From Puniceicoccaceae bacterium (lineage in GTDB: Bacteria; Verrucomicrobiota; Verrucomicrobiia; Opitutales; Oceanipulchritudinaceae): DNA of 64,000 nt. The stretch spans positions 1-64,000 of the forward strand of contig JBFOMH010000003.1 in NCBI GenBank assembly GCA_040830765.1. Direction: 5' to 3'. The number at the start of each line of letters is the position of its first letter. Position 1 is the stretch's first letter. The translations under genes were made by a program, and so were the position numbers. Shown in pieces: positions 1-61,067 of the stretch. Under the pieces are notes generated by a model that was given only the letters and a program-made list of their open reading frames with translations, had not been told where the DNA came from and made no database searches.

Positions 1-1
1 C

Positions 2-862: not shown

Positions 863-958
863 GCGCCAGAGTTCACTTCATACAAGTAGAACAATTGCGT
901 CTCCATGCCCTGAGGAAATAACCTGACAAGTTACCTTCCCTCGCATCATACTGACAGA

Positions 959-1894: not shown

Positions 1895-1905
1895 CCTCCA
1901 TCAGC

Positions 1906-4515: not shown

Positions 4516-4542
4516 AATCGATGTGAATCAACCGAACAACGT

Positions 4543-5427: not shown

Positions 5428-5445
5428 CAGGCCTTGTGCCAGCCA

Positions 5446-5829
5446 CTAGATAAACGGATTGCCCCGTTTGCAGAGTTGCAGGGAGACGCCCCAAGGGTCC
5501 TTCATCATGATCAGGTGGGAGCCATCCGCCAGTTTGTCTTCCTCGAAGAAAGTGGCCCCTGCCGCTTCCAGGCGTGACCGATCGGCTTCCGGGTCCTCGG
5601 AAACCAGTGCCAGGTGCATCAACAAGGGATGCATGGCAGGATAATCCGGGGTCGTCACCTTCGGATTGCGGTAAATTTCGATACAGACCGTCCCAGAATC
5701 ATCCGCCAGGAAGGTCATTTGGGCGCCTTTCGGATTGTGCCGGACAATCCTGAATCCGAGGTGCTTGCAATACCAGTCAGCAGCAGCCACTGGATCCGGC
5801 ATATCCCAGGCAAAGTGTTCAATCTTCAT
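5446..5829 (-). CDS. VOC/glyoxalase family protein
   Basis: IEHFA, WYCKHLGF, HLAL, KDPWG motifs; 127 aa. Confidence 0.85.
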   Translation of the reverse strand: MKIEHFAWDMPDPVAAADWYCKHLGFRIVRHNPKGAQMTFLADDSGTVCIEIYRNPKVTTPDYPAMHPLLMHLALVSEDPEADRSRLEAAGATFFEEDKLADGSHLIMMKDPWGVSLQLCKRGNPFI

Positions 5830-5915
5830 AAGGACTGGAGTCTGTAGGAGGATATCCGGTTGATAAAGAACTTTCCGGCTTCACAAGGACATCTTTTGCC
5901 CGGGCCAATGCTACA

Positions 5916-9365: not shown

Positions 9366-9385
9366 GGCACTTTGTAGTGGTTTTC

Positions 9386-11536: not shown

Positions 11537-11666
11537 AGGAATTTGGATAAGGTGTCCTGGGAAAAGGCTCAAGAAGAACAGACTAAAGTGCCAACCCATG
11601 GGTGCCCTACAATTAGGAGTTACCTGCTGGGGTGAAATTCACATGATTCACTATCTGAGAAAGGCC

Positions 11667-13487: not shown

Positions 13488-13517
13488 TATGTGAAATTCA
13501 ATTGAGACAGTGGCATG

Positions 13518-15185
13518 TCATTTGCCTGCAGTTGATGCTGGCAAGGGAAAGGTGTCTTTCAGGCGCAAAGGCATCGCCGCAGGAACGTACCCCACTCCTG
13601 AGCCCCTGTCTCCCTGAGGTTCGTAGTGCGGGGAAGGAATTGTCGATTCAGGCACATATGCCTGGCCATTGTTGAATTGCAGCCACCAGTTGTCCCATTC
13701 GGCAGCCAGGGCTTTGAGGACTTCGGGATGGGAATGGGCAAGGTCGGTCACCTGCGTCCGATCATCGGCGAGGTAGTACAACTCCCAGCCATTGGCATCA
13801 ACTTCGGCAAGGCGCCAGTCGTTTGTGCGCAGGCCCCGGTTGTCCATGAATTGAAAATACAAGCTCCGGTCATTGTCCCAGTCTTTGTCCATGAGCAGCG
13901 GAACGAGGCTTCGTCCGGCCAGGCCGGATCCAGTTTCAACGGGCTTTGCATCCCTGGCACCCAACTCGACCAGGGTCGGCATGATGTCGATCATGTGGAC
14001 GGCATCATGGGAGATTTGACCCGCTTGAATGACGGCTGGCCACCAGGCAATTGCCCCGGTGCAGACACCCCCTTCATGCTGGCTGATCTTGTAGAGGCGC
14101 ATCGGCGTGTTATTGGCATAGGCCCAACCGCGGCCCGGCTGGTAATTGCTCCCACGGTCGCCGGGCAGAAGATCCCGGGCAATCATTTCCTCATCCAATA
14201 CGGAAAAGGAATCCGAACCATTGTCGCTCATGAAAAGTATCAGGGTGTTCTCCAAATCGCCGGTCTTTTCAAGGCAGGCCAACAACCTTCCGATGTCCTG
14301 GTCCATGATGTCGATCATGGCCGCATAGGTGGCCATCCTCAGGTCCTCAAGGTCCTTTTGCGCAGAAGACAGCGTATTCCAGTCGGGGAGGTTTTGCGGA
14401 TAAGGCGGAAGTTCGATTGCATCACCCATGATCCCCATGGCTTTCTGGCGGGCAAACCGTGCTTCCCGGATCGCCTGCCAGCCATCCAGATACTTCCCGC
14501 GGTACTTCCGGATGGCCTCCCTGGGGGCCTGCAGGGGATTGTGCGGCGCAGTGTAAGCAAGGTACAGAAAGAAGGGCTCGTCCCCGGAAAGGTCATTGTT
14601 TTCCCGGATGAAGCCAATGGCCGCATCCGTAAAGGCCGTGGTGGCATAAAATCCGGAATCAACCTCGCCCAGCGCTTCAAAGCCATCACGGAAATGGTCA
14701 TTGGGGACATAATAATCCGTGACCCCGTTCAGGATGCCGTAGAACCGGTCAAATCCCCGCTCCATTGGATGCCCTTCAAGATGCCACTTGCCCACGGCGT
14801 AGTTCCGGTATCCGGACTCCGCGAGCGCTTCAGGCAAGGTCTTACCGTCTTTGATTCCCCAACCGGCATCGGTGTGCCAGCGCCCGCTCAACAGCGACGT
14901 CCTTGAGGCGACACACATTCCTGCGTTGTAGAAGCTGGTCAACCGCAAGCCTCCCTCGCCGAGCCTGTCGAGGTTGGGGGTTGCGATCTCCCCACCAAAA
15001 CAACCGGCATCGGAGTAACCCATGTCATCGGCGACAATCAGGATGATGTTTGGTCGGGGCCCGGAGACAGTATCACCCTTGGCTGAAACCATCCCAGCAA
15101 CCGCGTTGCAGGTGGTGACAAAGGCGAAGATGAACAGGATGCAGATCTGCCGCCCTGCAGCAGATCCGGAATGGGCTCTATTCAT
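13518..15185 (-). CDS. Arylsulfatase-type sulfatase
   Basis: PNIILIVADDMGYSD, CVASRTSLLSG, GKWHL, YTAPH, SDNG; start placed at MNRAHS. Confidence 0.93.
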   Translation of the reverse strand: MNRAHSGSAAGRQICILFIFAFVTTCNAVAGMVSAKGDTVSGPRPNIILIVADDMGYSDAGCFGGEIATPNLDRLGEGGLRLTSFYNAGMCVASRTSLLSGRWHTDAGWGIKDGKTLPEALAESGYRNYAVGKWHLEGHPMERGFDRFYGILNGVTDYYVPNDHFRDGFEALGEVDSGFYATTAFTDAAIGFIRENNDLSGDEPFFLYLAYTAPHNPLQAPREAIRKYRGKYLDGWQAIREARFARQKAMGIMGDAIELPPYPQNLPDWNTLSSAQKDLEDLRMATYAAMIDIMDQDIGRLLACLEKTGDLENTLILFMSDNGSDSFSVLDEEMIARDLLPGDRGSNYQPGRGWAYANNTPMRLYKISQHEGGVCTGAIAWWPAVIQAGQISHDAVHMIDIMPTLVELGARDAKPVETGSGLAGRSLVPLLMDKDWDNDRSLYFQFMDNRGLRTNDWRLAEVDANGWELYYLADDRTQVTDLAHSHPEVLKALAAEWDNWWLQFNNGQAYVPESTIPSPHYEPQGDRGSGVGYVPAAMPLRLKDTFPLPASTAGK

Positions 15186-15383
15186 GAAGTGAATCAGGTG
15201 GATGGGTGGGGAAAGGTAAATGGGATGGCCCGAAAGCATCCCTCTTGTCGTCGATCACTGGTCTTACACATGGGCATTTCCCAGGCAATGGATCCGTTTT
15301 CAGAATATTATGATTACGCAGCAGACCCGGAAATCGATATGAGGATTGCCATGGATACCAGCCCTGCCTAGGCAAACAGTCTC

Positions 15384-37135: not shown

Positions 37136-37795
37136 TCATTCCAACCCGTCCCGGGCAATGTTCTGGAAGTCCGTCTGGTTGACGAAGCCCTTCTGCATGG
37201 CGTAACGGATCAATTCGACCGTTGAGTGCAGTCCCAACTTGCGCATGATGCGCGCCTTGTGGTTCTGCACGCTGACCGGCCGCAGGTTCAGGCTCTCGGC
37301 AATCCGCTCGTTGGAGGCACCGGCCCCGAAGTAACGGAGCAGTTCCTGTTCCCGCTCGGTCAGGATTTTTGAAAACGCCAGGGGGTCCGTCTTCTGGATA
37401 AGCATGTTCTGCTGCACCGTGGCGGCATAATAGCAATTTCCTTCCCCAAGTTGCTGCACCGCTTTCTTCAGTTCCTCAATGGACTCGGTGTTCTTGTCAA
37501 CGAATCCAAACAGGCCGGTCATGAAGACCCGGTAGAGGGTGTACTCGTCGGTGCGTCCCGAGACACCGAGGATCCGCAGCTTGGGATTGACCTTGAGCAT
37601 GCGGTTGGCCAAGTCCAGACCGCTCCCGTCCGGCAGCTCAATATCGAGAATGGCGACATCCGGATTGTATTTTTCAAAGGCCTTCCACCCATCCTTGATA
37701 GTCTGGCAAGTGGCCACCAGTTCGAATTTTTCGGTCAGGCAATTACTGACCAGATCGATGCCCAGCTTTTGATCTTCAATGATGATGGTTTTCAT
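37136..37795 (-). CDS. NarL/LuxR-family response regulator
   Basis: IIEDQ, LDIELPDGSG, GFVDK; HTH LTEREQE..SNERIAESL..VQNHKARIMRKLG; ATGA overlap with kinase stop. Confidence 0.93.
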   Translation of the reverse strand: MKTIIIEDQKLGIDLVSNCLTEKFELVATCQTIKDGWKAFEKYNPDVAILDIELPDGSGLDLANRMLKVNPKLRILGVSGRTDEYTLYRVFMTGLFGFVDKNTESIEELKKAVQQLGEGNCYYAATVQQNMLIQKTDPLAFSKILTEREQELLRYFGAGASNERIAESLNLRPVSVQNHKARIMRKLGLHSTVELIRYAMQKGFVNQTDFQNIARDGLE

Positions 37796-40700
37796 GACCG
37801 TCTCCATTTCCGCAGTTCCAGTAGCCCTACGTGTATCTCGTCCATGTCACCGTTCTGGGCGGACACTTGTAAGTCACGACATACCTGCTGCATGGCGCGA
37901 TTATTCCGGATCATGGCGAGGGTAGTCAAGCGATGGGCGCATCGACGGAGATTTTCCCACTCGTAGCGGTCTCCGTAAAGGAGGCATTCGTCGATATGTT
38001 TGTAAATTTCCTCCATCACCTCATCGGCGGCTACCATATCGGTGGTGCTGGCGAGCTCCGGCTTGTAATTCTGGATATTGGCCAGACAGTAGGCCAGGCG
38101 GGCAGCTGTCAGTGGCTTGCTGATATAGCCATTCATGCCCGCTTCCTCGCTTTCGCGCTTTTTCTCCCCATCGGTATAGGCCGTTACGGCGACCAGGATA
38201 ACCTCGTCATCAGGATCCTTCTTGCGGTGGCGGCGGGCGATTTCCGGGCCGGTCAACCCGGGAAGGTCCCAATCCAGCAGGGCAAGGTAGTAGTCGTTCT
38301 TCTCCAGCTGTTCGAGGGCATCCCGGCCGTTCTCAGCCTCGTCGCAGGAACAACCAATGGTCTCAAAGAACTCCACCACCGAACGGCGGTTGTAGACCAG
38401 GTCATCCACGACGAGAATCTTTTTACCCTTCAACTGGGCCAGGACCGCCTCCTTGTCGAGCTCGGTGGCTCCCTCGACACGATCGAAGCGCCCCTTGAGG
38501 ACAAAGCGGCAACCGGAAGGTTGATTGTCTTCCAGCCGCAAGTGTCCCCCCATGGCATGGGCGATTTCCTGACAAATGGACAATCCCAGTCCCGTCCCGT
38601 GCTTCCCGCTTTCCACACCGCTTTCACCCCGGTAGAAGCGCTCAAAAATGAATTCGCGTTCGGACTCGTCAATGCCGATGCCCCAGTCGGCAACATACAG
38701 TTCAAGGTCGACTTCATGGTCGGTGATGTTGATGCAGGTGGCTCCAATCTCCACCCGGTCCGACTCCGCGTACTGGAGGGCATTAACCAGCAGGTTGCTC
38801 AAAATCTTGATCATCCAGTTCCGGTCTGTCCGGATGACGACATCAGCCAGTTCCGGGGAAATGACCGTGTTCAGGTTCACCATCTCATGCTGAAGGCTGA
38901 ACTGGTTCTGTTTCACCGAGCTCTCGATCAGGTCGTGGATGGAAACAGGTATGAAGGCCGTCGGGATGTTTTTCTGATCAATGGCCGAAAAGTCGAGGAT
39001 CTCACCCAGCATCCGGTCAACAATGACTCCGAATTCGGTCAGGTCCTTCAAGCGGGGATCATCTCCGGATTCCGGTGGATTCCTGGTCAGGGTCTCGGTA
39101 ATCATGAGAACCCCGTTCAAGGGATTGCGGATGTCATGCGACAAGCCGGCGAGGAAGTTAGTCCGAGCTGCGGTGGCGGCCTCCAATTCCCGTGTCTGTT
39201 TCTTGACCTCGCTTTGCAACCAGAGGTTGGTCCGCTTCAATTGCGCCGAACGCAGGGCGAACAAGCCCCAGAAAAAGAAGAGGGCCGCCACGACCATGAC
39301 TCCCTGGTAGATGGGATTCAAGTACCAGGGCGGGGCGATCCCGAATTGCACCAGCTTGGAGGAGGAAACATTTCCATTCGGGTGCATGGCCCGCAACTCC
39401 ACCGTGAAGTTGCCATGCCCGGCAAACTGCAGGGACGGATCCTGCAAATTGACGTTTCGCCACCGCTGCTCGTTGATGCGGTACTGGACGATGCTGGGAA
39501 TGTCCGGCTCGGAGAAATTCACCTGCAGGTCAATGAAGTGCATGCCGCTGGGAATGGTCCGGTCCTCGATGCGCTTGTCTTCCAGCAGCAGGGCAAACTC
39601 GACCCGGGGTGCCGCCGCTCGGGACAATTCCGGAACCGCATACCAACCGACACCATGCGCCCCGACGATGCCCAGCCGCTCACCCCCACCCATCAGGCCA
39701 ATTGCTTCCCCGGCCTGCTCCAGGAACGGAACGGTCATCATGATGTTGCCGGCGTCGGAATACATGCCGACGGCAAGGTTTCGCGTGGCTGGATCTTCAA
39801 AAAGGACATAGGTATCCTCGCCCGAGTTACTGAGTGACCTGACGGTCCATCCTGGTGCCAGGGGGAAGCGTTCCAGCGATTCACCCCTCCATCGATAGAC
39901 AACCGTCGGGGAGGCCAGCCAGACCGCATTCTCACCCGCCGCATGGGCAATGATGACGTCCTCCATCTTGTAGGGGAGCTCCACTGAGCGCCATCCGGAC
40001 CCTTCCCGGATTAACTGCAGAATCTGCTTGCCCCCGATGAGGGCGTAAAAGCCGGAATCCAATTCTCCAATCAGCTCAATCTGGCGCTCATCCTTGTGAA
40101 TCAGTTCGAGTTCGAATGTGTCGGAAACTGAGTAGATTCCCTCCACCCCAAGGGCAAAGCCCGTTGATTGGCCCCACTTGAAGCTGGATATCGGTTGGGT
40201 GAGCTCTCTTACCGACCAATCTTCTCCATTAAATTCTTCGTAAATATTAACTGCTCCCATCACTGGGAGGCCGTCCTTGTCAACATCCACCCAGCTCGCC
40301 GTCCGCAGGAGTTCACCTTTCTCATAACCATCATTATCCAACCGGATCCAACCCTCATCCAGAAAGAGAAAGCCTGCCTCTTCCCCAGCCAGAAAATGCC
40401 GGACACTGTCCCCTTCCCAAAGCTCCCCGGAAGGGAAAAACTTGGACTCCCTGCTGAAGTCAACCACCCCCACGCCCTTGTCACCAAGCATGGCGATCCG
40501 GGTTTTATCAAGGGCCCGGATCTTGAAAACATCGCCCAGATCCAGCTTTTCATCGCTGCTAACGCTTTCACTGATGCGTTCCAGTGACCGGTTCCATACC
40601 GCCACCCCGAGCGGGTACTCAGTAATGGCGATATAATCGCCAAGACCCGCTGAATTATTGATGCCCTTCTTGAAAAAGTCCCCGTAGTTGGAATTGATAA

Positions 40701-41406
40701 GAACCGGTTCATCGTTCTTCTTTCCCGACCAGTAATATACCCCGAAATTGGTCCCGAAGGTGTACTTCTCCCCGGTCCTTTCGAGCCAGGCGACCAGTTC
40801 TCCGTCCGTCATTTCAATGGGAAGGATAAGTTCCCGGCCTTCGGCCGTTATGCGCCAGATACCAGAACCTGACCCGACATACAAAAACGGATTTTCCGCA
40901 TCGGCATGGTAGACTACCGGCCGGGGATTAAAGGTCTCTTTCCAGTGCTGTCCGACTTGGAACGTATCTGGCTCGATCCATCCAAATCCCTCTGAAGCAA
41001 TATACCACAAACGGTCCAGGTACCACTCCAACGACCATACAAAACCGACTTCAAGGGTTGAGAATCCGACAAGTTTTCCCGATCTGTCGAAGCCGCCAAC
41101 ACCGGCGGAATCAGCAAACCAGAGTGTGTTTCCATTCGGTGAAACGGCGAGTGCGGTAACGCGCCCGGAGGGCCGTATTGTCTCCCACTGGTCACCGCTG
41201 AGCCGATACAATCCCTCCCCTGCGAGCCATATATCATCCGCGAACAGGCTGACATCATGATAGCTTGCCGGCGGCACCGATTCGAGCTTTTCGGCGAAGC
41301 GGTAGGCGGGACCCGTTAATGGATCCGCAATCAGGACGTTGATAAAATTTAATCCAACGAGGAATAGGAACTGTGGAAATATGGATGAAGACATTTTTTT
41401 AAACAT
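37792..41406 (-). CDS. Hybrid sensor histidine kinase (large propeller-like periplasmic sensor, Y_Y_Y-like, TM, HisKA, HATPase, REC, HPt-like)
   Basis: FLAGLSHDIRNPLN, NLLVNA, DWGIGI, GTGLGL, VVDD..LLDWDLP..SKP, C-terminal RCAHRL; start probably 41406 or 41394, not 41562. Confidence 0.92.
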   Translation of the reverse strand: MFKKMSSSIFPQFLFLVGLNFINVLIADPLTGPAYRFAEKLESVPPASYHDVSLFADDIWLAGEGLYRLSGDQWETIRPSGRVTALAVSPNGNTLWFADSAGVGGFDRSGKLVGFSTLEVGFVWSLEWYLDRLWYIASEGFGWIEPDTFQVGQHWKETFNPRPVVYHADAENPFLYVGSGSGIWRITAEGRELILPIEMTDGELVAWLERTGEKYTFGTNFGVYYWSGKKNDEPVLINSNYGDFFKKGINNSAGLGDYIAITEYPLGVAVWNRSLERISESVSSDEKLDLGDVFKIRALDKTRIAMLGDKGVGVVDFSRESKFFPSGELWEGDSVRHFLAGEEAGFLFLDEGWIRLDNDGYEKGELLRTASWVDVDKDGLPVMGAVNIYEEFNGEDWSVRELTQPISSFKWGQSTGFALGVEGIYSVSDTFELELIHKDERQIELIGELDSGFYALIGGKQILQLIREGSGWRSVELPYKMEDVIIAHAAGENAVWLASPTVVYRWRGESLERFPLAPGWTVRSLSNSGEDTYVLFEDPATRNLAVGMYSDAGNIMMTVPFLEQAGEAIGLMGGGERLGIVGAHGVGWYAVPELSRAAAPRVEFALLLEDKRIEDRTIPSGMHFIDLQVNFSEPDIPSIVQYRINEQRWRNVNLQDPSLQFAGHGNFTVELRAMHPNGNVSSSKLVQFGIAPPWYLNPIYQGVMVVAALFFFWGLFALRSAQLKRTNLWLQSEVKKQTRELEAATAARTNFLAGLSHDIRNPLNGVLMITETLTRNPPESGDDPRLKDLTEFGVIVDRMLGEILDFSAIDQKNIPTAFIPVSIHDLIESSVKQNQFSLQHEMVNLNTVISPELADVVIRTDRNWMIKILSNLLVNALQYAESDRVEIGATCINITDHEVDLELYVADWGIGIDESEREFIFERFYRGESGVESGKHGTGLGLSICQEIAHAMGGHLRLEDNQPSGCRFVLKGRFDRVEGATELDKEAVLAQLKGKKILVVDDLVYNRRSVVEFFETIGCSCDEAENGRDALEQLEKNDYYLALLDWDLPGLTGPEIARRHRKKDPDDEVILVAVTAYTDGEKKRESEEAGMNGYISKPLTAARLAYCLANIQNYKPELASTTDMVAADEVMEEIYKHIDECLLYGDRYEWENLRRCAHRLTTLAMIRNNRAMQQVCRDLQVSAQNGDMDEIHVGLLELRKWRRS

Positions 41407-41425
41407 ACTGTAAAAATGGAGCCCT

Positions 41426-41593
41426 ATGAAAAACATCAAACGCATCCTAATACTCGTTGTGGCTATCTGTTTAGCCTCAGTCGGGCTAAATGCACAAGCT
41501 GAAACCGTCAGTAAGAAGGTAATCAAGGATTTGGACTCCAAGAGTTCCGGTTCCATTCTCATGAGTATCTACTGTATCGTCGGCATCAAGTAG
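41426..41593 (+). CDS. Unlisted 55-aa small secreted peptide, candidate RiPP precursor
   Basis: Hand translation: MKNIKRILILVVAICLASVGLNAQA|ETVSKKVIKDLDSKSSGSILMSIYCIVGIK*; Sec-type signal with AxA site; GGAG 4 nt upstream; directly upstream of the YcaO-like gene. Confidence 0.65.
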   Translation: MKNIKRILILVVAICLASVGLNAQAETVSKKVIKDLDSKSSGSILMSIYCIVGIK

Positions 41594-41650
41594 CCCTTAG
41601 GAGTAACGCAACACTGAATACTAACCGTAACGTATAACAAAGGCCTAGAA

Positions 41651-42631
41651 ATGACCACCCTGTCACAGTCAGCAACGCTGCCCGTTCCCTATGATTTGAG
41701 CGCAGCACCCGAATGGTTCCTCAAGAAAGCACGCTTCGCCAAGCGGTTTTTCCTGAATCTTGCCCCCATCCGCTATGCGCTGGCTGCTGAAGAAGGGGGT
41801 CCTATCAGCCAGGTGGAATACGGCCAGGCGGAATACATGGGCCAGCTCTGGCAGCTGTGCCGGGCGACCTTGCAGGAGGATTTCCAGCACCCGATGGGGA
41901 AAAAGCTGGAGTTGTTCTCCTCCGCAGACGGCTCGGGCATGGGGCTGACACGGCTTGAGGCCCGCGCCAAGGCTATCTCCGAAGCCCTCGAACGCTGGGC
42001 CTACACGGAGACCAGTTCCGGACCGGACGCTGTTCTCTATGGATATCCGTATTCCATGAGTACCAAGGGCATGGCCGCCTTTCCCAGTGTTTTCCCGGGA
42101 ATGGCACGCCGCACCGCCATTTCAGAGGCTTTTGAATACTACTCGGTGGACGCGTGGTGGGGAGGCACTCTCAACCACTGGATAATCAATCGGGACGATT
42201 CAACTATCGTCTTCATCAACCAGCCTGAGTTCAAGGGACATATCGCCTTGGCTATCCGGCACCTCGACCTGAACGACTATGTCGCCGCTTACGGGATAGG
42301 ATCGGGTGCTACGGCTGAAGAAGCCGAACTCAAGGCACAACTGGAAGCCTGCCGCTCACAGACCATTCTCGAACGGCGTGATGCGACACCCCACCGTGTC
42401 CGTAACAAGCCCGTCCTGGAAATGGAACAACGCCTGCTCGAGTTCTCTTCGCGCGAAGGCTTTGCCATGGTCAAGGATCGTCTTGCCAGTCGCCCGTGGT
42501 TGCCGGAAATCAAGCCCAACGTCATCTTCGACGGACCGGTCAAGGGACCATGGAATAAGTACGCCCATGTCTGGCGCTACGCACTGGAGCCCTTCCCGAT
42601 TAAGTATCGCCAACGTCAGTTTGTTGCCTGA
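41651..42631 (+). CDS. Short YcaO-like protein
   Basis: GSGMG..EARAKAISEALERW, STKGMAA..ARRTAISEAFE, GIGSG..AELKAQLE resemble the three Glu-containing ATP/Mg motifs of YcaO. Confidence 0.7.
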   Translation: MTTLSQSATLPVPYDLSAAPEWFLKKARFAKRFFLNLAPIRYALAAEEGGPISQVEYGQAEYMGQLWQLCRATLQEDFQHPMGKKLELFSSADGSGMGLTRLEARAKAISEALERWAYTETSSGPDAVLYGYPYSMSTKGMAAFPSVFPGMARRTAISEAFEYYSVDAWWGGTLNHWIINRDDSTIVFINQPEFKGHIALAIRHLDLNDYVAAYGIGSGATAEEAELKAQLEACRSQTILERRDATPHRVRNKPVLEMEQRLLEFSSREGFAMVKDRLASRPWLPEIKPNVIFDGPVKGPWNKYAHVWRYALEPFPIKYRQRQFVA

Positions 42632-42698
42632 CCAGGCACCGCTGCTGCCAATCTGCTGTCAATCTCCACAAACCGTCTTCATCCTAACCACAGGCACA

Positions 42699-43193
42699 AT
42701 GAGCACGCATGAAAGCACTTTCAACTTCCCGTTCATCTCCAACCTGATTTCTGACAAGGCTGGTGAGCGAACGAGCCAATTCCGTAAACAGGCTGTCTCC
42801 ATGAAAGAAAAAGCCCTCTGCCTTGACGACGACCCCCTTTCGCTTCGTCTGGTTGAGCACCTGTTGAAGGAGCGCTACCAGGTTGTTTCCTGTCCCACCA
42901 TTGATGCCGCAGTCAAGGCGGTACGGCGGCACAAGTTCTGCCTCTTCCTGTGCGACTATCATCTCGGGGAGCATTTCACTGGCGCTCGCGCCAACGAAAT
43001 CCTCACCCGGAAATACCGTTTCAATCCAATCCACCGGGTTCTGATCACTTCCTACCCGTCGCCGGAAATTGAAAAGGAGACCCTGGCCAGCGGATTTGAA
43101 AGAGTATTCGCAAAACCGCTACGTCGAGAGTTCCAATCCTATTGCCTGAGCCTTTACCGTCCTCCCCTCAAGAGTGGCATGGCCGTAGGCTGA
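42699..43193 (+). CDS. Single-domain response regulator receiver protein
   Basis: CLDDD, FLCDYHL, LITS, FAKPL; start at 42699 or 42801. Confidence 0.8.
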   Translation: MSTHESTFNFPFISNLISDKAGERTSQFRKQAVSMKEKALCLDDDPLSLRLVEHLLKERYQVVSCPTIDAAVKAVRRHKFCLFLCDYHLGEHFTGARANEILTRKYRFNPIHRVLITSYPSPEIEKETLASGFERVFAKPLRREFQSYCLSLYRPPLKSGMAVG

Positions 43194-43409: not shown

Positions 43410-45599
43410 ATGACTCTCGCTGCCAGACTGACGGCCTTGTTGATTATCGTCGCCGTCACGCCCGACCTCCCGGGCAAACCCAAGCCGGTTCCGGCTACCG
43501 GGCATGGAGTGCCACCGCCTCCGGTTGAGCTGAGCGGATCAAACGACACCCTGCTGCAGGCCAACCTGGCACCTGAGAACCAATATTCGATCGGCAGTCC
43601 CTCCGATGAAGAGCAGGCCATTGTCGAGATGATTAACCGGGCCCGTGCGGATGCCGACGCGGAAGCGCTACGTCTCGCCAATACCACCGACCAGGATGTC
43701 CTGGATGCGATCTGCTTTTTTGGTGTCAACCTGCCGGAGATGATCAACCAGTTCGCTGCCCTCCCCCAGTCCCTTCCCCCGCTTTCCATCCATCCTGAAT
43801 TAACGGATATGGCCCGCCTTCATTCCCAGGACATGTTTGACAATGTTTTCCAGGGCCACACCAGTTCCGGCACTCCCCCCGCTCCCTACTCCGCCGGGGA
43901 CACACTCTCAGACCGTGCTGCCGAGTTCACCTATGCCTACACGACGCTCGGAGAGAATGTTTATGCCTTCGCCAGATCTGATGCCTATGGTCATGCCAGT
44001 TTTGAAATCGACTGGGGATTCGATGCCTTTGGGATGCAAAGCCCACCGGAACACCGGGAAACGATTCATGATGCCCGATTTAAGGAAATTGGAATTGGCA
44101 TTATCAAGGGAACTAATTCGACCGAGTCCCTGACCGTTGGTCCCTTGCTGATGACCCAGGTATTCGGCGAGCCCCAGTCGTCAGGTCCCTTTATTACGGG
44201 CGTCGCCTATTACGACCTCAATGGAAATGGATTTTATGACGCCGGAGAGGGACTTGGCGGATTGACCGTTTCCACCGAGGAAACGACGGCCTGGGCACTG
44301 ACCGCAAACAGCGGGGGTTACTCCATTCCGGTCCCGTCGGATGGCGCCTACACGGTTACATTTTCCGGGTTAGGCATCACGCCCCAGACTACGGTCGTCA
44401 ACGTGGCGTCCGGGGAAAACATCAAGCAGGACTTTGCCATTGGATATGTCCCACCCGTCCTCTCCGGCTCATCCACGCCCTTTACCGGGATCGACAACGA
44501 ATATGCCATATCTCCAACGCCAGGAGCTACTGGCTACTGGTTCAAGGTATATACTGAAAATGTCACTACATGGCTGGAGGGGGCCGAGAACGGTAACACG
44601 GATGTCACGATCCTCAACAGCCCTGAATACGTCGTCATCCAGGGAGAGGTGGTCCGCAACGGGGCCAATGCCTTTCACCTTGCCCATCCGGGAGGCGGAA
44701 GCGACCAGGTCATCACGCTTCAGCATACCATATTTCCAACCGCCAGCAGTGAACTTCGTTTTGGCAGCAAGCTGCAGTATGCAACCTCCTCGCAAACGGC
44801 CAATGTGGACGTATCCACCAACGAAGGAATATCATGGACCAATATTTACCGCCAGACAGGATCCAACTCCAGCGGGGAAGCCGGTTTTGTCTACCGTTTT
44901 GTCCCTCTGGGAAGTTATGCCGGCCAACCGCTGCGGATTCGCTTCCGCTACTCCGTTGAAGGATGCAACCCCTCCATCTACGATGGTATCACCACAAACA
45001 TTGGCTGGATTATCGACGACATTACGGTGGCCAACGCGACCCGCTTGCTCCCGGAAAGCGAATTCATCCTGGGGTCCCCAATAGCGACTTTCAATCCCGC
45101 CACCGCCGGGGAATTCTACCTCACTGCCCGTCCGGTCAACAATTTCAAGGGCTTCCCCTATGGTCCGCTCCTCAAGGTAACATCCGGACCTGCCGGGCCG
45201 CAGGACTTGTGGCGGCTGGATAACTTCCTCCAGGCCGACCTCAATGACTCAGCCAAGGAATCGACAATATGGGGCGACCTCGCTGATCCCGACAAGGATG
45301 GATTGGGCAACTTACTTGAGTACGCCCTGGCGGGTAATCCCAACCTCGCCGATGCCCACATGATTATGCCGCAGTTCGGCCGGTCGGGAGGTGTCCTGAC
45401 GCTCAGTTACACGATGCAACGCTCTGAATTGAGCTACCGCGTCCTGACGAATACGGATCTCCAGGACCAGCCATGGACATCAACCGGGGTCAGCCAGACG
45501 CCGGATCCCGACACCGCGAGCGAAGGCACCCCCATAGAGGCTTCCGTGACCCTCGGCGTTGGTCGCCGTTTCCTGCAGCTTGAGGTGGTTGAGCCCTGA
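43410..45599 (+). CDS. Secreted multidomain CAP (SCP) protein
   Basis: INRARAD, ARLHSQDM, GEN, HRETI, EIGIG; SdrD-like YYDLNGNGFYDAGEG; C-terminal DPDKDG..EYAL tail. Confidence 0.8.
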   Translation: MTLAARLTALLIIVAVTPDLPGKPKPVPATGHGVPPPPVELSGSNDTLLQANLAPENQYSIGSPSDEEQAIVEMINRARADADAEALRLANTTDQDVLDAICFFGVNLPEMINQFAALPQSLPPLSIHPELTDMARLHSQDMFDNVFQGHTSSGTPPAPYSAGDTLSDRAAEFTYAYTTLGENVYAFARSDAYGHASFEIDWGFDAFGMQSPPEHRETIHDARFKEIGIGIIKGTNSTESLTVGPLLMTQVFGEPQSSGPFITGVAYYDLNGNGFYDAGEGLGGLTVSTEETTAWALTANSGGYSIPVPSDGAYTVTFSGLGITPQTTVVNVASGENIKQDFAIGYVPPVLSGSSTPFTGIDNEYAISPTPGATGYWFKVYTENVTTWLEGAENGNTDVTILNSPEYVVIQGEVVRNGANAFHLAHPGGGSDQVITLQHTIFPTASSELRFGSKLQYATSSQTANVDVSTNEGISWTNIYRQTGSNSSGEAGFVYRFVPLGSYAGQPLRIRFRYSVEGCNPSIYDGITTNIGWIIDDITVANATRLLPESEFILGSPIATFNPATAGEFYLTARPVNNFKGFPYGPLLKVTSGPAGPQDLWRLDNFLQADLNDSAKESTIWGDLADPDKDGLGNLLEYALAGNPNLADAHMIMPQFGRSGGVLTLSYTMQRSELSYRVLTNTDLQDQPWTSTGVSQTPDPDTASEGTPIEASVTLGVGRRFLQLEVVEP

Positions 45600-45606
45600 G
45601 GTTTCC

Positions 45607-46767
45607 CTAATTGGGGCTGGCTACAAAACGGATGAGCAGGGCATCATGCTCAAGGGGCAGGAGGATTTGCTCCAGGACGATGGCCCGGCCATCGGAAATC
45701 CGGGTATCCAGGTTGAGAACAGAACCGGCCATTTGCCACGTTTCGCCATCGTGGCTGTAGTGGATATTTAATTCAACTTCCGCACCGAGGTTCCTCCAAT
45801 ATACCAGGGAATATCCATCTTCAGGATCGATCGCCTGGGAGATAGAGGGCCGGCTGCCGGCATCGCTGGGGTCGGATGCGAACAGGTATTCCATCAATTG
45901 CGACCAGCCATCCCTGTCTGTGTCAGCGTTTTCCACTGGCTCCAAGGCATATCCCCCGCTCCAGTCAGCAAAGGAGACAACGGGAACGGTGGCCGGGTTC
46001 ATCACACCAACCGCATCCAAGTCAAATCCGGACGTAATGATCGTTGGATACGGATCATAAATCGCGTAGCCCTCGCAATCCATCCGGGTGCCATCCCCCG
46101 GTATGTCAACCAGGCGGACATACCGGATCGCCTCCATGTTTAAATACGGAAAATTCTCCTCCACCGATTCAGCATAGGCTTCACTGAACCGGTCATAGCC
46201 CTGCAGCAGGGCAGCATGGACCGCGGCGAGCTCGGCCAGGTCAAACGGGGTTCCAAATCCCCCCGCGTGCTTCCCGGCAAATCCCTCGATGTATTCCGGT
46301 TGTAATACCCCGAATGCACCGACGGGCTCCGCAGTCAGGGAGTAATTGGGAAACCGGACAAAATGCAGGCCATCTGAGGAAACCTCCACATAGGCCAATT
46401 CGAGAAATGTCCCGCTGAAGCTGTTTTCAAACACGGCAAAGTCGTAGCCCCCACCATCCCGGATTGAGGGCGTGAATTCCAGGACTGCCGAGCCGCCACG
46501 ACCCAATACGACGACGTCATTCCCGTTCAGAAAAGCCGGACCGAGACCTGCTTCCGGCGTTTTCCACTCCTCAGCCACTTCCTCGCCGTACGTAACCTCG
46601 ATCCCTGTGGCCCAACCCTTGATGACCGGGTCTTGATTCCAGATAGCGACTGTTCCCGGTTCCCCGGCGGCCGGACTGAAGGGAAACACCGGAGCTTCAT
46701 ATCCCAGTGCCAGCGTTGGCGGAAATCCGGTAATGGCCAGCAGCCCAAACTGAAGAAGGTGCCTCAT
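45607..46767 (-). CDS. Cell-surface protein of a type often found beside TonB receptors
   Basis: Signal peptide; [46 protein letters not shown] tail. Confidence 0.65.
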
Positions 46768-46773
46768 ATTGCC

Positions 46774-48801
46774 TTATATGGAGTAATTAAGCCGGATGAA
46801 GGCCTGACGTCCCGGGCCCGGGTAAAAGCCTCCGCTATAGGCGGAAACCGCGTGGTTTCGATCAAACAGGTTGTGAATACCCCCCGACACAACAAATTGG
46901 GGGTGGGGATTCCAGCGGAACATCAGATCCACGATCCCATAGGCGGGAATCCTGCGGAAGGCGTTCGCGAAGTCATTCCCCTGAACCTGTGATGATAAGT
47001 AGCGACCGTGAAGTTGTATTCGCAGGGAATCAACCGGCTTGAACCAGCCGGTGAGCCCACCCTCGTACCGGGGAACAAGTGGCAGCCGCTTTCCTACAGA
47101 CTCGTCCTCGAATTCAGTCCGCACCACGGTGGCATGCATGGAAATGCCGTAGCGGTCTTTTCGATACGCTGCATTCAGCTCCAAACCGCTCCGGACTGTG
47201 TCACCAATATTGATGTTCAGGCGCTCTGACTCGGAAAAGCTGATCTCATCATCCATGCGCAAGTGGAAGACGGTCGCCGAAAGGTGCCAGTTGTCCTCAA
47301 AGCGCTTCAACCCGGCCTCGAAATTATGGCCCGTTTCCGGCTCCAAATTCACGTTGAGGGGATCCCTCAGGGGAAATCCCTGGTAAGAAGCCGTTTCATC
47401 AAGCGCCGGATACCGGTAGACACGGTCCCAGCCGGCCCACAGATTGAGCCCTTGGGACAACTTCTTTACCAGTGAAACCTCAGCCGACCAGCCGGACTTT
47501 GTAATTGTGCCGTCATATGAGGCCTCCTCATCGATATCCGGATTCTCCTGGTATTCGGGATTCGGGAATGTGCCTCGGTTCGTCTCGATAAACGGGTTCA
47601 GCTGATTCTCCTCGTAGCGGACATAGTCATTCGCTGAACGCGCTGTCTCCAGTCGCAACCCTCCCGACAATTCCAGGGTGGAGCTCAACTCCCTTGAAGA
47701 AAACAGGTATCCCCCCACGGTCAGGCGCCCGATATCCGCAAAGGAGCGTAGAATGTCCCCCGCTTCATTCGTATAGTCCCGATGCCGCACCTCATCTCCG
47801 GCAATGTCCAGACCCGTCATCAAGAACCCTTTACCGTCGCCCAGACGGACCCGCGGGGATAGCGTCAACTGGCGTTGGCGGTTGTCCCCAAATCTCCCTT
47901 CCAGGTTGGACTGGCGCTGGCGCTGCAAAACTCCACCGTTCATTTGCCAGCTGCCCCAATCTTCCTGGCCTTCCCCCATCAGGGTCGCCTGCCAGTTCTC
48001 TGCCTCAACCCGCTCCTTGCCTCCGTTGTTGGACTGGCGCGGATTTTCCCGGAACTGCCCATAGGTCAACGGCCCGGGAAATTGGATCGCTGAGTCTCCA
48101 GCCGTAAACCGTCCCCTCCACCTGGGACCACTGGTTCCACCCACATTCCAGGATAGGTGGCCGGTTCGGCTCTCAATATCCGAGTTTTCCCGGTAGCCTT
48201 TGGATTCCATCCAGTCGAGCCCACCCCGCAGGCCCACGGTCCCCAGCGCCTGCTGCAGGGATGCCGATGCCCGGCGTGTGGCATCACTTCCAAATTCTCC
48301 CTCAAGGTTTCCTGCCAATTCGCCCCCAGGTTCCCGGGTGCGCAACTTCACCACTCCGGATACGGCATGGTTCCCATACAAGACCGTCTGCCCCCCACGC
48401 AGGACTTCCACCGTCTCCAACTCCCCCAGCGAAAGGCCCAGCCAGTTAATTCCCCCCATGTCCGGCGGATTGTACACCTGCCCGTCCACCAGTACCAATA
48501 CCCGCAAGCCGCTGTTGTCCCCAAAACCCCTCAGGGCCAGCTGCCCCTCCGCTCCTGTCCCGGTGAATTGGCGAAACCGTACCCCAGCCGCCTGCTCCAA
48601 TACCTGCGGCACGCTCCACGCCCCGCTCGTCTCCAAATCCACCCGCTCCAGACGCACCACGCTCGCCGGTATCTCCATCCCCAGCCCGTCAAAATGCCAC
48701 GCTTCCACCACGTACGGACCCAGCTCCACCACCGGCTCCGCTTCCACCCTCAGAACCGCCAGTAGCAACAGGATTATCCACCTCTGTCCATTTCCCTTCA
48801 C
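46774..48801 (-). CDS. TonB-dependent receptor
   Basis: GGAGG RBS + GTG at 48801; plug LRGFG..LVLVDG..EVLRGG..LYG..GVV; LEPETG; NLFDR..PGRQ..NYSI terminal strand. Confidence 0.9.
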   Translation of the reverse strand: MKGNGQRWIILLLLAVLRVEAEPVVELGPYVVEAWHFDGLGMEIPASVVRLERVDLETSGAWSVPQVLEQAAGVRFRQFTGTGAEGQLALRGFGDNSGLRVLVLVDGQVYNPPDMGGINWLGLSLGELETVEVLRGGQTVLYGNHAVSGVVKLRTREPGGELAGNLEGEFGSDATRRASASLQQALGTVGLRGGLDWMESKGYRENSDIESRTGHLSWNVGGTSGPRWRGRFTAGDSAIQFPGPLTYGQFRENPRQSNNGGKERVEAENWQATLMGEGQEDWGSWQMNGGVLQRQRQSNLEGRFGDNRQRQLTLSPRVRLGDGKGFLMTGLDIAGDEVRHRDYTNEAGDILRSFADIGRLTVGGYLFSSRELSSTLELSGGLRLETARSANDYVRYEENQLNPFIETNRGTFPNPEYQENPDIDEEASYDGTITKSGWSAEVSLVKKLSQGLNLWAGWDRVYRYPALDETASYQGFPLRDPLNVNLEPETGHNFEAGLKRFEDNWHLSATVFHLRMDDEISFSESERLNINIGDTVRSGLELNAAYRKDRYGISMHATVVRTEFEDESVGKRLPLVPRYEGGLTGWFKPVDSLRIQLHGRYLSSQVQGNDFANAFRRIPAYGIVDLMFRWNPHPQFVVSGGIHNLFDRNHAVSAYSGGFYPGPGRQAFIRLNYSI

Positions 48802-48856
48802 GTGACCTCCATACCCCTCATAATGGCACGGGAATGTCAATAAGGAAGGGAGTGTG

Positions 48857-50128
48857 CTATTGGGCACTGGCTCGGATGAACCGGGGGGCACCTGGCTGGA
48901 GGGCATTGGCATCCCTGACGGTGAGGTTCCATGTCCCGTCGCCGTTGGGGGAATTCCCTTCGACAATGACCTCGGCGGGATCGCTGGAGCTCCATGAACC
49001 GTCAAAGGACAGGGAGACACTGGTCCATCCGGCAAGGTCGCTACCCACTTCTACCGTATATTGGAGATCGGGGTCCTCACGGGTAGAGAAGACAGCCTGG
49101 AGGTGGCGCGCTCCGGTCAGCTCCGTCGTCCCGGAAAGCAGGGGTACGGGGTCGGTTGGATCGGAAGGGTCGAGGACAAAGGCGTATTCGGTAAAGTTGT
49201 CCAATCCGTCGCCATCGAAGTCGACAGCCGGACCAGCGACCGCCCAGTCGGTTGTCCCGAAGGCGGAGTTCATCCAGGAGACATACCCCGCCGTGGCGTC
49301 AACGGAGAAAGCAGAAATGGAGGCATCCAGGGAAGCGGCATAGTTCCCGATGTAGGAAAAGCCACTCAAGTTGCGCAGGTCCTCGAAGGCAGGCCGGCTG
49401 TCAATATCCACTGTTCCAATGAACCAGTTGATTCCAATCAGGGTAAGGACACCGCCGACGTCCCGCAGAAGAGGGGCTCCGGAATCTCCAATTTGCAGAT
49501 AAGCTTCGAAAGACACAAAATCCGGATCATCCGGCAGGTCCTGGTAGGCCAGTACAGCCTGATCGACAGTGCCAGAGTCACTGAAGTCCTCAATCCAATC
49601 ATTGAGGATATTCTTCCCCAGCGCCATATCGGTCACCAAAGGGAAGCTGGAAGGGGAACGGCCGACCATGAATGCCTCCTCGCCCGCATGCGAGGAGCTG
49701 AAGAAGCCAGCCGTATTGGCGATGGCCTCATCGGTGAAGGACATGGGAGTGTATCCGGCTGGGACTGGATCGGCCAATACACCCAGCCAGAGATCCGAGT
49801 CTTCAACCCTTTGCCCGGCAATGAGCTGCCTGCTCACAGATTCACCTGAGGGGTCGTTCGATTGATGGAATGTCATCGTACTCCCGATGGCCGGAAAGAA
49901 GTGATTGGCGGAAAGGATAACGTTTCCGCTGACCAGGGTACCCCAGCGCCCGGATTCGTTGAGGCCAATTGCCGAGAGGTCATAGGCAGCCGCGACAAAA
50001 GCCGGGTCGTTGCTGAATCGATCGTTACTGCCGCTGCTAAAGCCTTCAATGACAATGGCAGCCTCTCCCTGAAGACTCCCGCCGAGAAGGGCTCCGAGAA
50101 GCAGCAAAAATGGATTCCGACCAGGCAT
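48857..50128 (-). CDS. Secreted trypsin-like serine protease-fold protein
   Basis: Signal peptide; ILSANHF, SDLWLG, GDSGAPL, LIGIN; DFDGDG..EYAF tail. Confidence 0.7.
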   Translation of the reverse strand: MPGRNPFLLLLGALLGGSLQGEAAIVIEGFSSGSNDRFSNDPAFVAAAYDLSAIGLNESGRWGTLVSGNVILSANHFFPAIGSTMTFHQSNDPSGESVSRQLIAGQRVEDSDLWLGVLADPVPAGYTPMSFTDEAIANTAGFFSSSHAGEEAFMVGRSPSSFPLVTDMALGKNILNDWIEDFSDSGTVDQAVLAYQDLPDDPDFVSFEAYLQIGDSGAPLLRDVGGVLTLIGINWFIGTVDIDSRPAFEDLRNLSGFSYIGNYAASLDASISAFSVDATAGYVSWMNSAFGTTDWAVAGPAVDFDGDGLDNFTEYAFVLDPSDPTDPVPLLSGTTELTGARHLQAVFSTREDPDLQYTVEVGSDLAGWTSVSLSFDGSWSSSDPAEVIVEGNSPNGDGTWNLTVRDANALQPGAPRFIRASAQ

Positions 50129-60086: not shown

Positions 60087-61067
60087 TCACTTCCTCGGAT
60101 GAAACTTCTCATGCGCCTCGACGAGTCGTTTGCGGTCGACCCGGGTATAGATCTCAGTGGTTCCGATATCGGCATGGCCCAGCATTTCCTGGATGGCACG
60201 CAGGTCCGCCCCGTTGGAGAGGAGATGGGTGGCGAAGGAATGCCTAAGGAGGTGCGGCTTGACCGGTTTCTTAATCCCTGCCCTCTGGGCGTATTCCTTG
60301 ATCCAATACCAAATCGTCTTGCGGGAAAGGGCTGTCCCGCGGTTGCTCAGGAAAAGGGCACTCCCGGTCTTGGGACGCACCATGGAAGGACGTGCGTTGT
60401 GCAGGTAGCGCTGAATCGCTTCCCCTGCCTGACGCCCCACCGGGACGAGGCGGTCCTTGCCCCGCTTGCCTGCCTCGACGCGTAAGAAGCCATCTTCCAG
60501 ATCGAGGTCCTGCAGGGACAGTTGGCACAGCTCCGTTACCCGCAGGCCACTGCTGTACATCAGCTCAAGAAAGGCACGGTCCCGCAATCCCTGGGCGGAA
60601 TGGCGACTGGGCGCATCTAGGAGGGCATCAACCTCCTCCGGCGAAAGCGTATCTGGCAGTTGACGGGCCAGTTTCGGCCCGCTGACCAGCTCGGTAAAGT
60701 CACTGCCAATCACCTTTTCCGCCAGCAGGAAACGGGCGCAATGTTTGATGGCGCTCAGCTTGCGGGCCAGGGAAGCCGCAGAGTAGTCAGCCCCGTCGAG
60801 CGACTGCAACCAGGCCGAGATATCCTCACCAGCCACGGATTCCCAACCCGACTTCTTCCGTTTTGTAGCGATAAACTGGGCACACTGGCAAAGGTCCCGC
60901 TGGTACCCCTCGACGGTATGCCGCGAGTGTCCCTTTTCCAGCTCGATAAAGACCCCGAAGGCATCAAGCCCATCCGCCAGTCCGGGCGGCAGACTATCAA
61001 TGGCTGAATCAATGGATTCGCTCCATCGCCGCTGCTTCTTCAGGGACATGCTTCGATTAGAGGACAT
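60087..61067 (-). CDS. xerD: Tyrosine recombinase XerD
   Basis: RDRAFLELMYSSGLRVTEL, PHLLRHSFATHLL.GADLRAIQEMLGHADI.TTEIYT. Confidence 0.88.
   Translation of the reverse strand: MSSNRSMSLKKQRRWSESIDSAIDSLPPGLADGLDAFGVFIELEKGHSRHTVEGYQRDLCQCAQFIATKRKKSGWESVAGEDISAWLQSLDGADYSAASLARKLSAIKHCARFLLAEKVIGSDFTELVSGPKLARQLPDTLSPEEVDALLDAPSRHSAQGLRDRAFLELMYSSGLRVTELCQLSLQDLDLEDGFLRVEAGKRGKDRLVPVGRQAGEAIQRYLHNARPSMVRPKTGSALFLSNRGTALSRKTIWYWIKEYAQRAGIKKPVKPHLLRHSFATHLLSNGADLRAIQEMLGHADIGTTEIYTRVDRKRLVEAHEKFHPRK

Follow-up and report, generated by a model that had tools for sequence, protein, structure and literature searches.

The stretch of DNA analysed here (the window; 64,000 nucleotides of contig JBFOMH010000003.1, assembly GCA_040830765.1) stems from a Puniceicoccaceae bacterium of the verrucomicrobial order Opitutales and harbours a gene of 55 codons plus stop (41426..41593, plus strand; protein P0001) for a small peptide carrying a predicted Sec-type signal sequence. 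The gene is located within a 244-nt gap of 43 % G+C, flanked by genes of 50–64 % G+C: a minus-strand gene for a hybrid sensor histidine kinase (37792..41406; identified by Pfam, NCBIfam, sequence and tblastn) on one side and a plus-strand YcaO-like gene on the other. The latter encodes a stand-alone protein of 326 amino acids (41651..42631; P0027), here referred to as mini-YcaO and proposed to be the modifying enzyme of the peptide on the basis of a near-cutoff Pfam match, its predicted fold and its invariant residues. Third in the plus-strand operon is a gene for a single-domain receiver protein of 164 amino acids (42699..43193; Pfam Response_reg and NCBIfam), and downstream of the kinase gene follows that of a LuxR/NarL-type response regulator (37136..37807, minus strand; Pfam Response_reg and GerE, NCBIfam). 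The divergent start codons of kinase and peptide are 19 nt apart in all loci studied, and the mini-YcaO gene starts 57 nt after the peptide gene in the window and 57–64 nt after it, on the same strand, across the five further loci described below. No terminator-like site was found between these two genes; the two sites detected are both located within the YcaO gene.

The open reading frame (ORF) proposed in an earlier note on this DNA is present in the ORF listing of the window, begins with ATG and translates into exactly the 55 residues quoted there; likewise, the composition given for the 30 residues following A-Q-A (6 Ser, 1 Thr and 1 Cys) agrees with the translation. Length alone is weak evidence for a gene, as a complete ATG-initiated ORF of at least 55 codons arose in 55 out of 2000 dinucleotide-preserving shuffles of the gap, and conservation decides. 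Neither Pfam nor NCBIfam matched the peptide, no second copy of its gene was found in the window or the loci, and public annotation, where the gene is called at all, reads "hypothetical protein". Matches in the ESM Atlas were restricted to HEAT-repeat look-alikes scoring below 0.9 and were treated as noise.

Homologues were retrieved by several routes. A word-indexed search of 5.8 billion proteins yielded 18 proteins of 77–92 % identity, mostly 58 amino acids long, and an exhaustive phmmer search of 1.84 billion cluster representatives yielded six matches at E ≤ 0.001, five of which (46–59 amino acids, 40–60 % identity) share the layout of the window peptide. The sixth, P0023, a highly repetitive protein of 1513 amino acids with 31 % identity over 13 matched stretches, resembles the translation of a tandem repeat and was dropped as spurious. 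A profile search recovered 47 proteins, all at E ≤ 2.1e-16, and the relatives comprise 46–61 amino acids; no longer (fused) relative appeared in the phmmer search, which was run without length limit. In a scan of GTDB representative genomes, 33 stretches matched the search pattern, six of which encode a relative, representing five distinct loci (L001–L005), all from Puniceicoccaceae/Opitutales metagenome-assembled genomes. The contig of L002 is labelled "uncultured Agromyces sp."; beyond about position 9500 its sequence equals that of the Opitutales locus L003, and over positions 1–9499 the two part, L002 there holding GTG-rich ORFs and a kinase body of another kind. The contig is probably an assembly chimera or mis-binned.

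The peptide ORF is intact and at the same place in all five loci. Substitutions were analysed among five distinct sequences (window, L001, L003, L004 and L005), L002 being identical to L003 over the ORF. The 56 variable sites are distributed over the three codon positions as 12/10/34, and the ratio of nonsynonymous to synonymous substitution rates (dN/dS, Nei–Gojobori) in the peptide frame is 0.04–0.36 in 10 out of 10 pairs. The pooled pN/pS is 0.20 for the peptide frame; the two shifted sense frames reach 1.01 and 1.33, the three antisense frames 1.27, 0.42 and 1.61. Among relatives, the peptide frame and its Y-C motif are retained at 38–45 % identity, where DNA similarity is gone, and the length of the C-terminal tail changes without frameshift. 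Since the frame is intact in the loci and substitutions follow a coding-type pattern, the peptide gene is real: on this comparative evidence, the ORF is a genuine gene under purifying selection.

The same comparison resolves why the gene escapes notice. A minus-strand ORF (37792..41562) overlaps the peptide ORF by 137 nt, and the earlier note had suspected that an over-extended kinase ORF masks the smaller gene. This was borne out: tblastn homology of the kinase begins at the ATG at 41406 in L001–L004 and one residue later in L005, none was detected upstream of 41406 in the loci, and the antisense frame with the pN/pS of 0.42, which is that of the kinase "extension" (41407..41562, minus strand), carries a stop codon in L005. 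Judging from these alignments, the kinase starts at 41406 or else at a second ATG, 41394, and a start there yields an N-terminal hydrophobic segment as expected of a membrane sensor. The check advised in the note, tblastn and dN/dS of the peptide frame versus the antisense frame, thereby favoured the peptide (frame kept in 5/5 loci; 0.20 vs 0.42), and what it had named as speaking against a gene, a frame broken in relatives beside a conserved antisense extension, was found the other way round.

Residues 1–25 of the peptide (41426..41500, plus strand) are, from sequence, hydropathy and alignment, predicted to form a Sec-type signal peptide. An n-region with K2, K5 and R6 precedes a hydrophobic run of 15 amino acids (I7–L21; 9-residue Kyte–Doolittle mean up to 3.76) and the predicted cleavage site N-A-Q-A (A23-Q24-A25), followed by E26. 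Small residues at positions −3 and −1 typically precede the cut by signal peptidase I (von Heijne rule). In 48 aligned sequences, on which all residue counts for the peptide are based, A25 is invariant, Q24 is conserved in 46, and position −3 is occupied by A in 29 and T in 12. The segment fits a Sec/signal peptidase I signal in its charged n-region, hydrophobic run and small −3/−1 residues, and export and cleavage after A25 are predicted, in agreement with the signal anatomy read by the earlier note. A lipoprotein reading (signal peptidase II lipobox) was rejected: residue C15 is Cys in only 24/48 sequences (S in 17, A in 5), and the position preceding it is I or T.

The predicted exported peptide (residues 26–55; 41501..41590, plus strand) comprises 30 amino acids in the window and, according to the alignments, 33–34 in most relatives. 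It begins with E or D, with E26 and K30 nearly invariant; D35 is invariant and has L or M after it. Best conserved is the block of residues 42–50 (41549..41575, plus strand), which ends in Y49-C50 and is the proposed modification site by column entropy and complex model; its mean column entropy is 0.67 vs 1.94 for the tail. C50 is found in 48/48 sequences and Y49 in 46/48 (W in two), while position 47 is S in 29, T in 17 and N in 2. The argument of the earlier note from a Ser-rich core did not survive the alignment: only Cys50 (48/48) and Ser/Thr47 (46/48) are conserved, and the remaining serines vary. Residues 51–55 (41576..41590, plus strand) constitute a short variable tail and possibly a follower peptide. 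As the list of tails illustrates, this part varies in length (2–10 amino acids after C50 in relatives) and sequence, and usually a pair of hydrophobic residues leads into a stretch rich in Gly and a charged, mostly basic end; the short 5-residue version occurs in the window, L001 and one metagenomic protein (P0007).

The neighbouring enzyme escapes the standard family models narrowly. Pfam YcaO (PF02624) scores 23.8 bits on the window protein, under the cutoff of 25.7 and over residues 95–119 only, and TIGR00702 yields an E value of 0.06. Its relatives are more easily recognized: among 40 aligned members (of 120 listed), 37 reach E ≤ 0.01 with Pfam YcaO, the lowest value being 3.8e-11. The mini-YcaO family comprises at least 495 proteins of approximately 293–328 amino acids, whose named source organisms are always Verrucomicrobia/Opitutae and whose names, where given, are mostly "hypothetical protein" and in two cases "YcaO accessory factor". 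An AlphaFold2 model built on the 40-sequence alignment has a mean predicted local distance difference test (pLDDT) of 86.9. Comparison of the model with the PDB by Foldseek returned, at E ≤ 0.001, 37 listed chains, all of them YcaO-domain structures with a probability of 1.00, at template modelling (TM) scores of 0.41–0.53 on the query and identities of 10–14 %; they include the YcaO proteins of Methanopyrus kandleri, Methanocaldococcus jannaschii and Escherichia coli, McbD, LynD/TruD-type heterocyclases and MusD. Matches came from the fold search only, as sequence searches of the PDB with mini-YcaO alone or as a profile returned nothing significant. Nine residues are invariant in the 40 sequences (S110, E111, E114, R115, E159, E162, E232, R235 and E259); the Glu and Arg residues among them may correspond to the conserved acidic and basic residues with which YcaO proteins bind ATP and Mg. 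Judged from its modelled fold, the 326-aa protein is a divergent, minimal, partner-less YcaO-fold enzyme.

Peptide and enzyme are linked by several lines of evidence. All five loci encode the N-terminal part of the kinase, the peptide, the 326-aa protein and the receiver, and the same gene arrangement is found in each locus over the length that its contig covers. Within the block the 326-aa protein is best conserved, with 80–98 % identity vs 56–88 % for the full-length kinases of L001, L003 and L004. A short co-oriented gene beside the enzyme gene with conserved co-occurrence, the arrangement expected of precursors of peptides that are made by ribosomes and modified after translation (RiPPs), is thus present in 5/5 loci. 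It extends to a distant pair with consecutive NCBI locus tags (JJT96_01365 and JJT96_01360), the only one in which adjacency was checked by locus tag, where peptide and enzyme share 42 % and 49 % identity, respectively, with those of the window. Furthermore, for 16 out of 47 peptide clusters the longest contig equals in size that of an enzyme homologue, a proxy for a shared contig, and all 16 proxy partners belong to enzyme homologues of at least 47 % identity.

A model of the complex of peptide and mini-YcaO, calculated with both alignments, scored 0.70, the best of three controls 0.00; the mark applied was reached by 116/157 solved complexes and 2/215 mismatched pairs, counts that are rough since the alignments were our own. 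Between runs, at least 85 % of contacts are shared, and the partner pLDDT is 75 or more. Peptide residues 38–54 in the best run touch enzyme residues including the invariant E111, R115, E232, R235 and E259, the contacts of lowest expected error are those of D35/L36 with enzyme residues 100–105 and 55–57, and the signal segment runs along enzyme residues 35–46. The model hence places both D35-L36 and the core with the invariant Cys on the enzyme, and supports binding of the peptide by the enzyme. The tie to the YcaO-like gene assumed in the earlier note is strengthened by this model and by the close spacing of the two genes.

The reading we favour, at a likelihood only slightly above even, is that of a RiPP-type precursor, most likely the dedicated substrate of mini-YcaO, which this enzyme modifies at or beside Tyr49-Cys50 while still in the cytoplasm and which is then exported via Sec and cut after A25. 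In this scheme the 55-aa precursor would be made in the cytoplasm and bound by the partner-less YcaO through the invariant D35-L36 region and perhaps also through the hydrophobic signal segment. The enzyme would then spend ATP to activate a backbone amide beside the invariant Tyr49-Cys50. In a rough ranking of possible chemistries, thiazoline formation with the Cys as internal nucleophile would come first, and a thioamide, as could be expected from the nearest structures, second; the nearest fold matches, the methanogen YcaOs, are presumably thioamide-forming enzymes independent of TfuA. Third would be an ATP-driven removal of the variable tail by analogy to MusD. Sec export followed by the signal peptidase I cut after A-Q-A would release a peptide of about 30 amino acids into the periplasm. 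The module would be wired to the divergent hybrid kinase/LuxR-type regulator and the receiver of the operon, acting either as regulators of production or as a peptide sensor. The modification itself, its chemistry, the export and the signalling role are what we infer from the locus, the alignments and the models.

Several points weigh against this reading. Cytoplasmic modification has to compete with the Sec signal, and no modification of the peptide has been observed. According to a preprint, a canonical PxPxP C-terminus marks azoline-forming YcaOs (bioRxiv 10.1101/2025.07.11.664356); it is present in 0/40 mini-YcaO sequences, two of which have an unrelated internal match. Nor did Pfam detect a gene for an E1-like or RiPP recognition element (RRE) partner, TfuA or a dehydrogenase among the long ORFs of the window. 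Because PxPxP and partner proteins are absent, known motifs give no answer on the type of reaction, and cyclodehydration is only one of several reactions possible for mini-YcaO. No peptide homologue was paired in the profile search with the mini-YcaO branch of 33–39 % identity (about 295 amino acids), and the enzyme family may therefore have another ancestral substrate. The success of the complex model may partly reflect likeness to solved YcaO–peptide complexes. Adjacency of the two genes is no proof, because YcaO substrates can be encoded elsewhere: E. coli YcaO acts on uL16, i.e. YcaOs can modify folded proteins encoded at other sites (PMC13063428). Finally, part of the conservation of the signal peptide may be a DNA-level rather than a protein constraint. 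Among invariant DNA stretches of the locus, those ranking second and third in length (17 and 16 nt; 41465–41481 and 41489–41504) are located in signal-peptide codons and have frozen synonymous sites, for which a promoter of the opposite-strand kinase gene is a possible cause.

Among known systems, bufferins come closest in the routing of the precursor. They are Sec-signal RiPP precursors modified before export, and their signal peptide may be part of the recognition sequence (PMC12452194). With bufferins and oxazolins (MNIO/DUF692; PMC12452194) the present system shares a Sec signal in place of a classical leader, a Cys as proposed modified residue, a precursor gene directly upstream of the enzyme gene, and the lack of a dedicated exporter or leader peptidase. 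In contrast to bufferins, it has an ATP-dependent YcaO, no MNIO/DUF2063-type partner detectable by Pfam in the window, one Cys instead of several, and a setting within a two-component system. The absence of a nearby exporter or peptidase, also remarked in the earlier note, holds for the receiver ORF and the 49 long ORFs that the window contains, among which Pfam detected no ABC exporter, peptidase, E1-like/ThiF, TfuA, nitroreductase-type dehydrogenase, MNIO or AgrB protein and no RRE, Ocin-ThiF or DUF2063-type partner.

With respect to the enzyme, the bottromycin and spyrimidone pathways, in which YcaO heterocyclisation is followed by removal of a follower peptide (bioRxiv 10.1101/2025.07.11.664356), and the linear azol(in)e peptide system of microcin B17 (McbBCD) share with the present system the YcaO fold (McbD, 6gos, and LynD, 4v1v, were matched), a Cys near the C-terminus and a short, dispensable-looking tail. 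They differ in that here PxPxP, an E1/RRE partner, a dehydrogenase and a follower hydrolase gene are lacking and the precursor has a Sec signal. At 326 amino acids, mini-YcaO is also smaller than the listed matched YcaO chains (360–753 amino acids). Best structural matches are the methanogen YcaOs (M. kandleri 6ci7/6cib and M. jannaschii 6pe3/6peu; E 1e-6, TM score 0.44–0.48, identity 12–14 %), which were also the best, non-significant match of the PDB-sequence profile search (E 0.81) and are likewise stand-alone proteins of modest size. Their substrate, which we take to be the large enzyme McrA, is unlike the co-encoded small peptide here. No match to TfuA, the marker of YcaO–TfuA thioamidation, was obtained by Pfam in the window; TfuA-independent thioamidation is possible. 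MusD of muscoride biosynthesis, which removes a short C-terminal recognition sequence in an ATP-driven reaction (PMC10885120), also has the YcaO fold (7u58; Foldseek rank 32), but is a chain of 651 amino acids with 11 % identity from a cyanobactin pathway with other enzymes, and a MusD-like removal of the tail after Cys50 is a conjecture by analogy.

The regulatory genes of the module deserve closer description. The kinase consists of an N-terminal signal or transmembrane segment, a periplasmic part of about 700 amino acids, a second transmembrane segment, HisKA, HATPase and receiver; its periplasmic segment (739 amino acids) had no Pfam match at E ≤ 5. About 95 residues following the receiver at the C-terminus (window 37792–38100) have no Pfam match, look helical and, with a His in H-x-L context, could be a divergent Hpt domain. 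The LuxR regulator gene is present in three of the five loci (L001, L003 and L004); the sequence of L005 begins only within the kinase gene, and that of L002 is divergent farther upstream. The receiver protein is encoded in 5/5 loci and has an N-terminal extension of 35 amino acids before the receiver fold. Its listed ORF (42306–43193, 295 amino acids, GTG start) is over-extended, with the ATG at 42699 as most likely start; an ATG-initiated ORF of 164 amino acids occupies the equivalent place in L002. The combination of a kinase with a large periplasmic domain, a LuxR regulator and a receiver suggests regulation of production or autocrine sensing.

This setting gives rise to the foremost alternative, which is unlikely yet deserves attention: the unmodified small periplasmic peptide might modulate the adjacent hybrid kinase directly, mini-YcaO having another target, e.g. 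a protein. MgrB, a small membrane-anchored regulator, acts on the sensor kinase PhoQ in this manner. The constant 19 nt between the peptide and kinase starts, the roughly 700 periplasmic residues of the kinase, and a peptide with a signal sequence and a single conserved Cys would all be accommodated, as would the wider mini-YcaO clade without detected peptide partner. The hydrophobic run of 15 amino acids followed by A-x-A, however, resembles a cleaved signal, unlike an MgrB-type anchor, and a conserved core with a variable tail is typical of modified precursors. Moreover, although YcaOs with protein substrates exist (PMC13063428), the peptide gene is co-oriented and closely spaced with the YcaO gene, not with the kinase gene, and the complex with YcaO passes where the controls score 0.00.

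A second alternative is suggested by the genes farther downstream. A minus-strand operon (45607–50128) encodes a siderophore-receptor-like TonB-dependent receptor between two proteins without family assignment (423 amino acids upstream and 386 amino acids downstream of the receptor), for neither of which a PDB or family match was found. This operon is also present in L002 (13020–17532) and L005 (2136–4611), i.e. in all three cases reaching that far, the window included. The peptide might accordingly bind metal in the periplasm or after secretion, in the manner of bufferins or chalkophores, with the Cys as thiazoline or thioamide ligand and uptake by the nearby receptor, and Sec-signal RiPPs with modified Cys do bind copper (PMC12452194). 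Against this very unlikely proposal stand the single Cys per peptide, with no His, Met or Cys cluster, a receptor scoring below every curated cutoff, and the variable gene that separates the receptor from the peptide operon. In the window (43410–45599), L001 and L004 this gene codes for a CAP-domain secreted protein, in L002 it is another ORF.

Still less probable is a quorum signal resembling autoinducing peptides (AIPs), in which Cys50 would form a thiolactone or other ring, the tail would be lost and the divergent kinase would sense the product. The analogy, raised in the earlier note, draws on features shared with AgrD: a small precursor, one key invariant Cys, a short variable C-terminal tail, and adjacent genes for a sensor kinase and regulators; ATP-dependent removal of C-terminal residues by the YcaO-type MusD (PMC10885120) would add a route to the loss of the tail. 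Closer inspection gave the analogy no support. Pfam scans of the window's long ORFs detected no AgrB-like protein, the N-terminus has the character of a Sec signal rather than of an amphipathic AgrD-type leader, the tails are Gly-rich and mostly basic vs the acidic C-terminal tail of AgrD, and the hybrid kinase with its large periplasmic domain differs from the AgrC-type membrane sensor. In a diderm, furthermore, the 30-aa periplasmic peptide has no evident route out of the cell. We know of no YcaO that forms a thiolactone, which also counts against this explanation.

At the DNA level, the longest invariant run in the 3.3 kb aligned for the window, L001, L003 and L004 is an element of 25 nt (41337..41361, no strand assigned) with one substitution in L005; it is a candidate promoter and/or operator of the peptide operon. 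It is located within the N-terminal codons of the kinase gene, 65 nt upstream of the peptide ATG, and occurs once in the window; its third codon positions are frozen even though the kinases are only 56–58 % identical. The element may be read as TGn plus a −10-like hexamer, i.e. as extended −10-like, and also as a pair of 5-bp inverted arms, while a scan for the two-hexamer sigma-70 consensus returned no promoter. No conserved RNA structure was detected in 41337–41520 by RNAalifold (five sequences, 0 compensatory pairs of 34, positive covariation term), and against Rfam the region 41000–42000 produced, at E ≤ 1, no more than two chance matches below threshold. The weakest alternative, a chance ORF in a divergent promoter region whose DNA is conserved for regulatory sites, could invoke these runs, the ORFs of equal length in 55/2000 shuffles and a kinase promoter that must be inside or beyond the peptide ORF, but deserves next to no credence given a third-position bias (34/56) and a pN/pS of 0.20 confined to the peptide frame, a frame and Y-C motif persisting to 38–45 % identity, past DNA similarity, and a tail of varying length in an unbroken reading frame.

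Two other regions of the window are recorded as side observations. The region 5916–15239 encodes a GH106 alpha-L-rhamnosidase, two sulfatases and an MFS sugar transporter, a typical cluster for sulfated-polysaccharide degradation of marine Verrucomicrobiota. Among housekeeping genes, a minus-strand gene (60087–61067) codes for a tyrosine recombinase (Phage_integrase plus SAM-like N-terminal domain), most likely of the XerC/D type.

Extending the favoured reading of a YcaO-tailored, Sec-exported precursor, one may envisage a complete periplasmic signalling circuit in a diderm, an idea that at present is rather doubtful: a partner-less YcaO of about 300 amino acids would read the signal peptide and the D-L motif, produce a ring- or thio-modified Tyr-Cys end and possibly clip the tail, and the Sec-exported product would be the ligand of the divergent kinase, with feedback through the 25-nt element. 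If true, this circuit would be the first case of a signal peptide made by a YcaO, of a YcaO RiPP routed through Sec, and of a peptide autoinduction system in Verrucomicrobiota. The open full-text literature, which leaves subscription journals largely outside, yielded no description of such a peptide/mini-YcaO system.

YcaO enzymes rank among the major sources of modified peptides, and the characterised RiPP-type YcaOs met in this analysis work with partner proteins, classical leaders and dedicated transporters for export. The locus described here, from marine Verrucomicrobia, is a candidate YcaO RiPP-like system that would combine a minimal enzyme with a precursor routed through Sec and a phosphorelay of its own, the modification being predicted. 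It also illustrates that genes of less than 60 codons beneath over-extended neighbours hide functional partners of "orphan" enzymes. If the modification is true, the system would constitute a new RiPP family in a little-studied phylum, provide a minimal YcaO for substrate recognition without an RRE, and offer a test case for reconciling cytoplasmic tailoring with Sec export.

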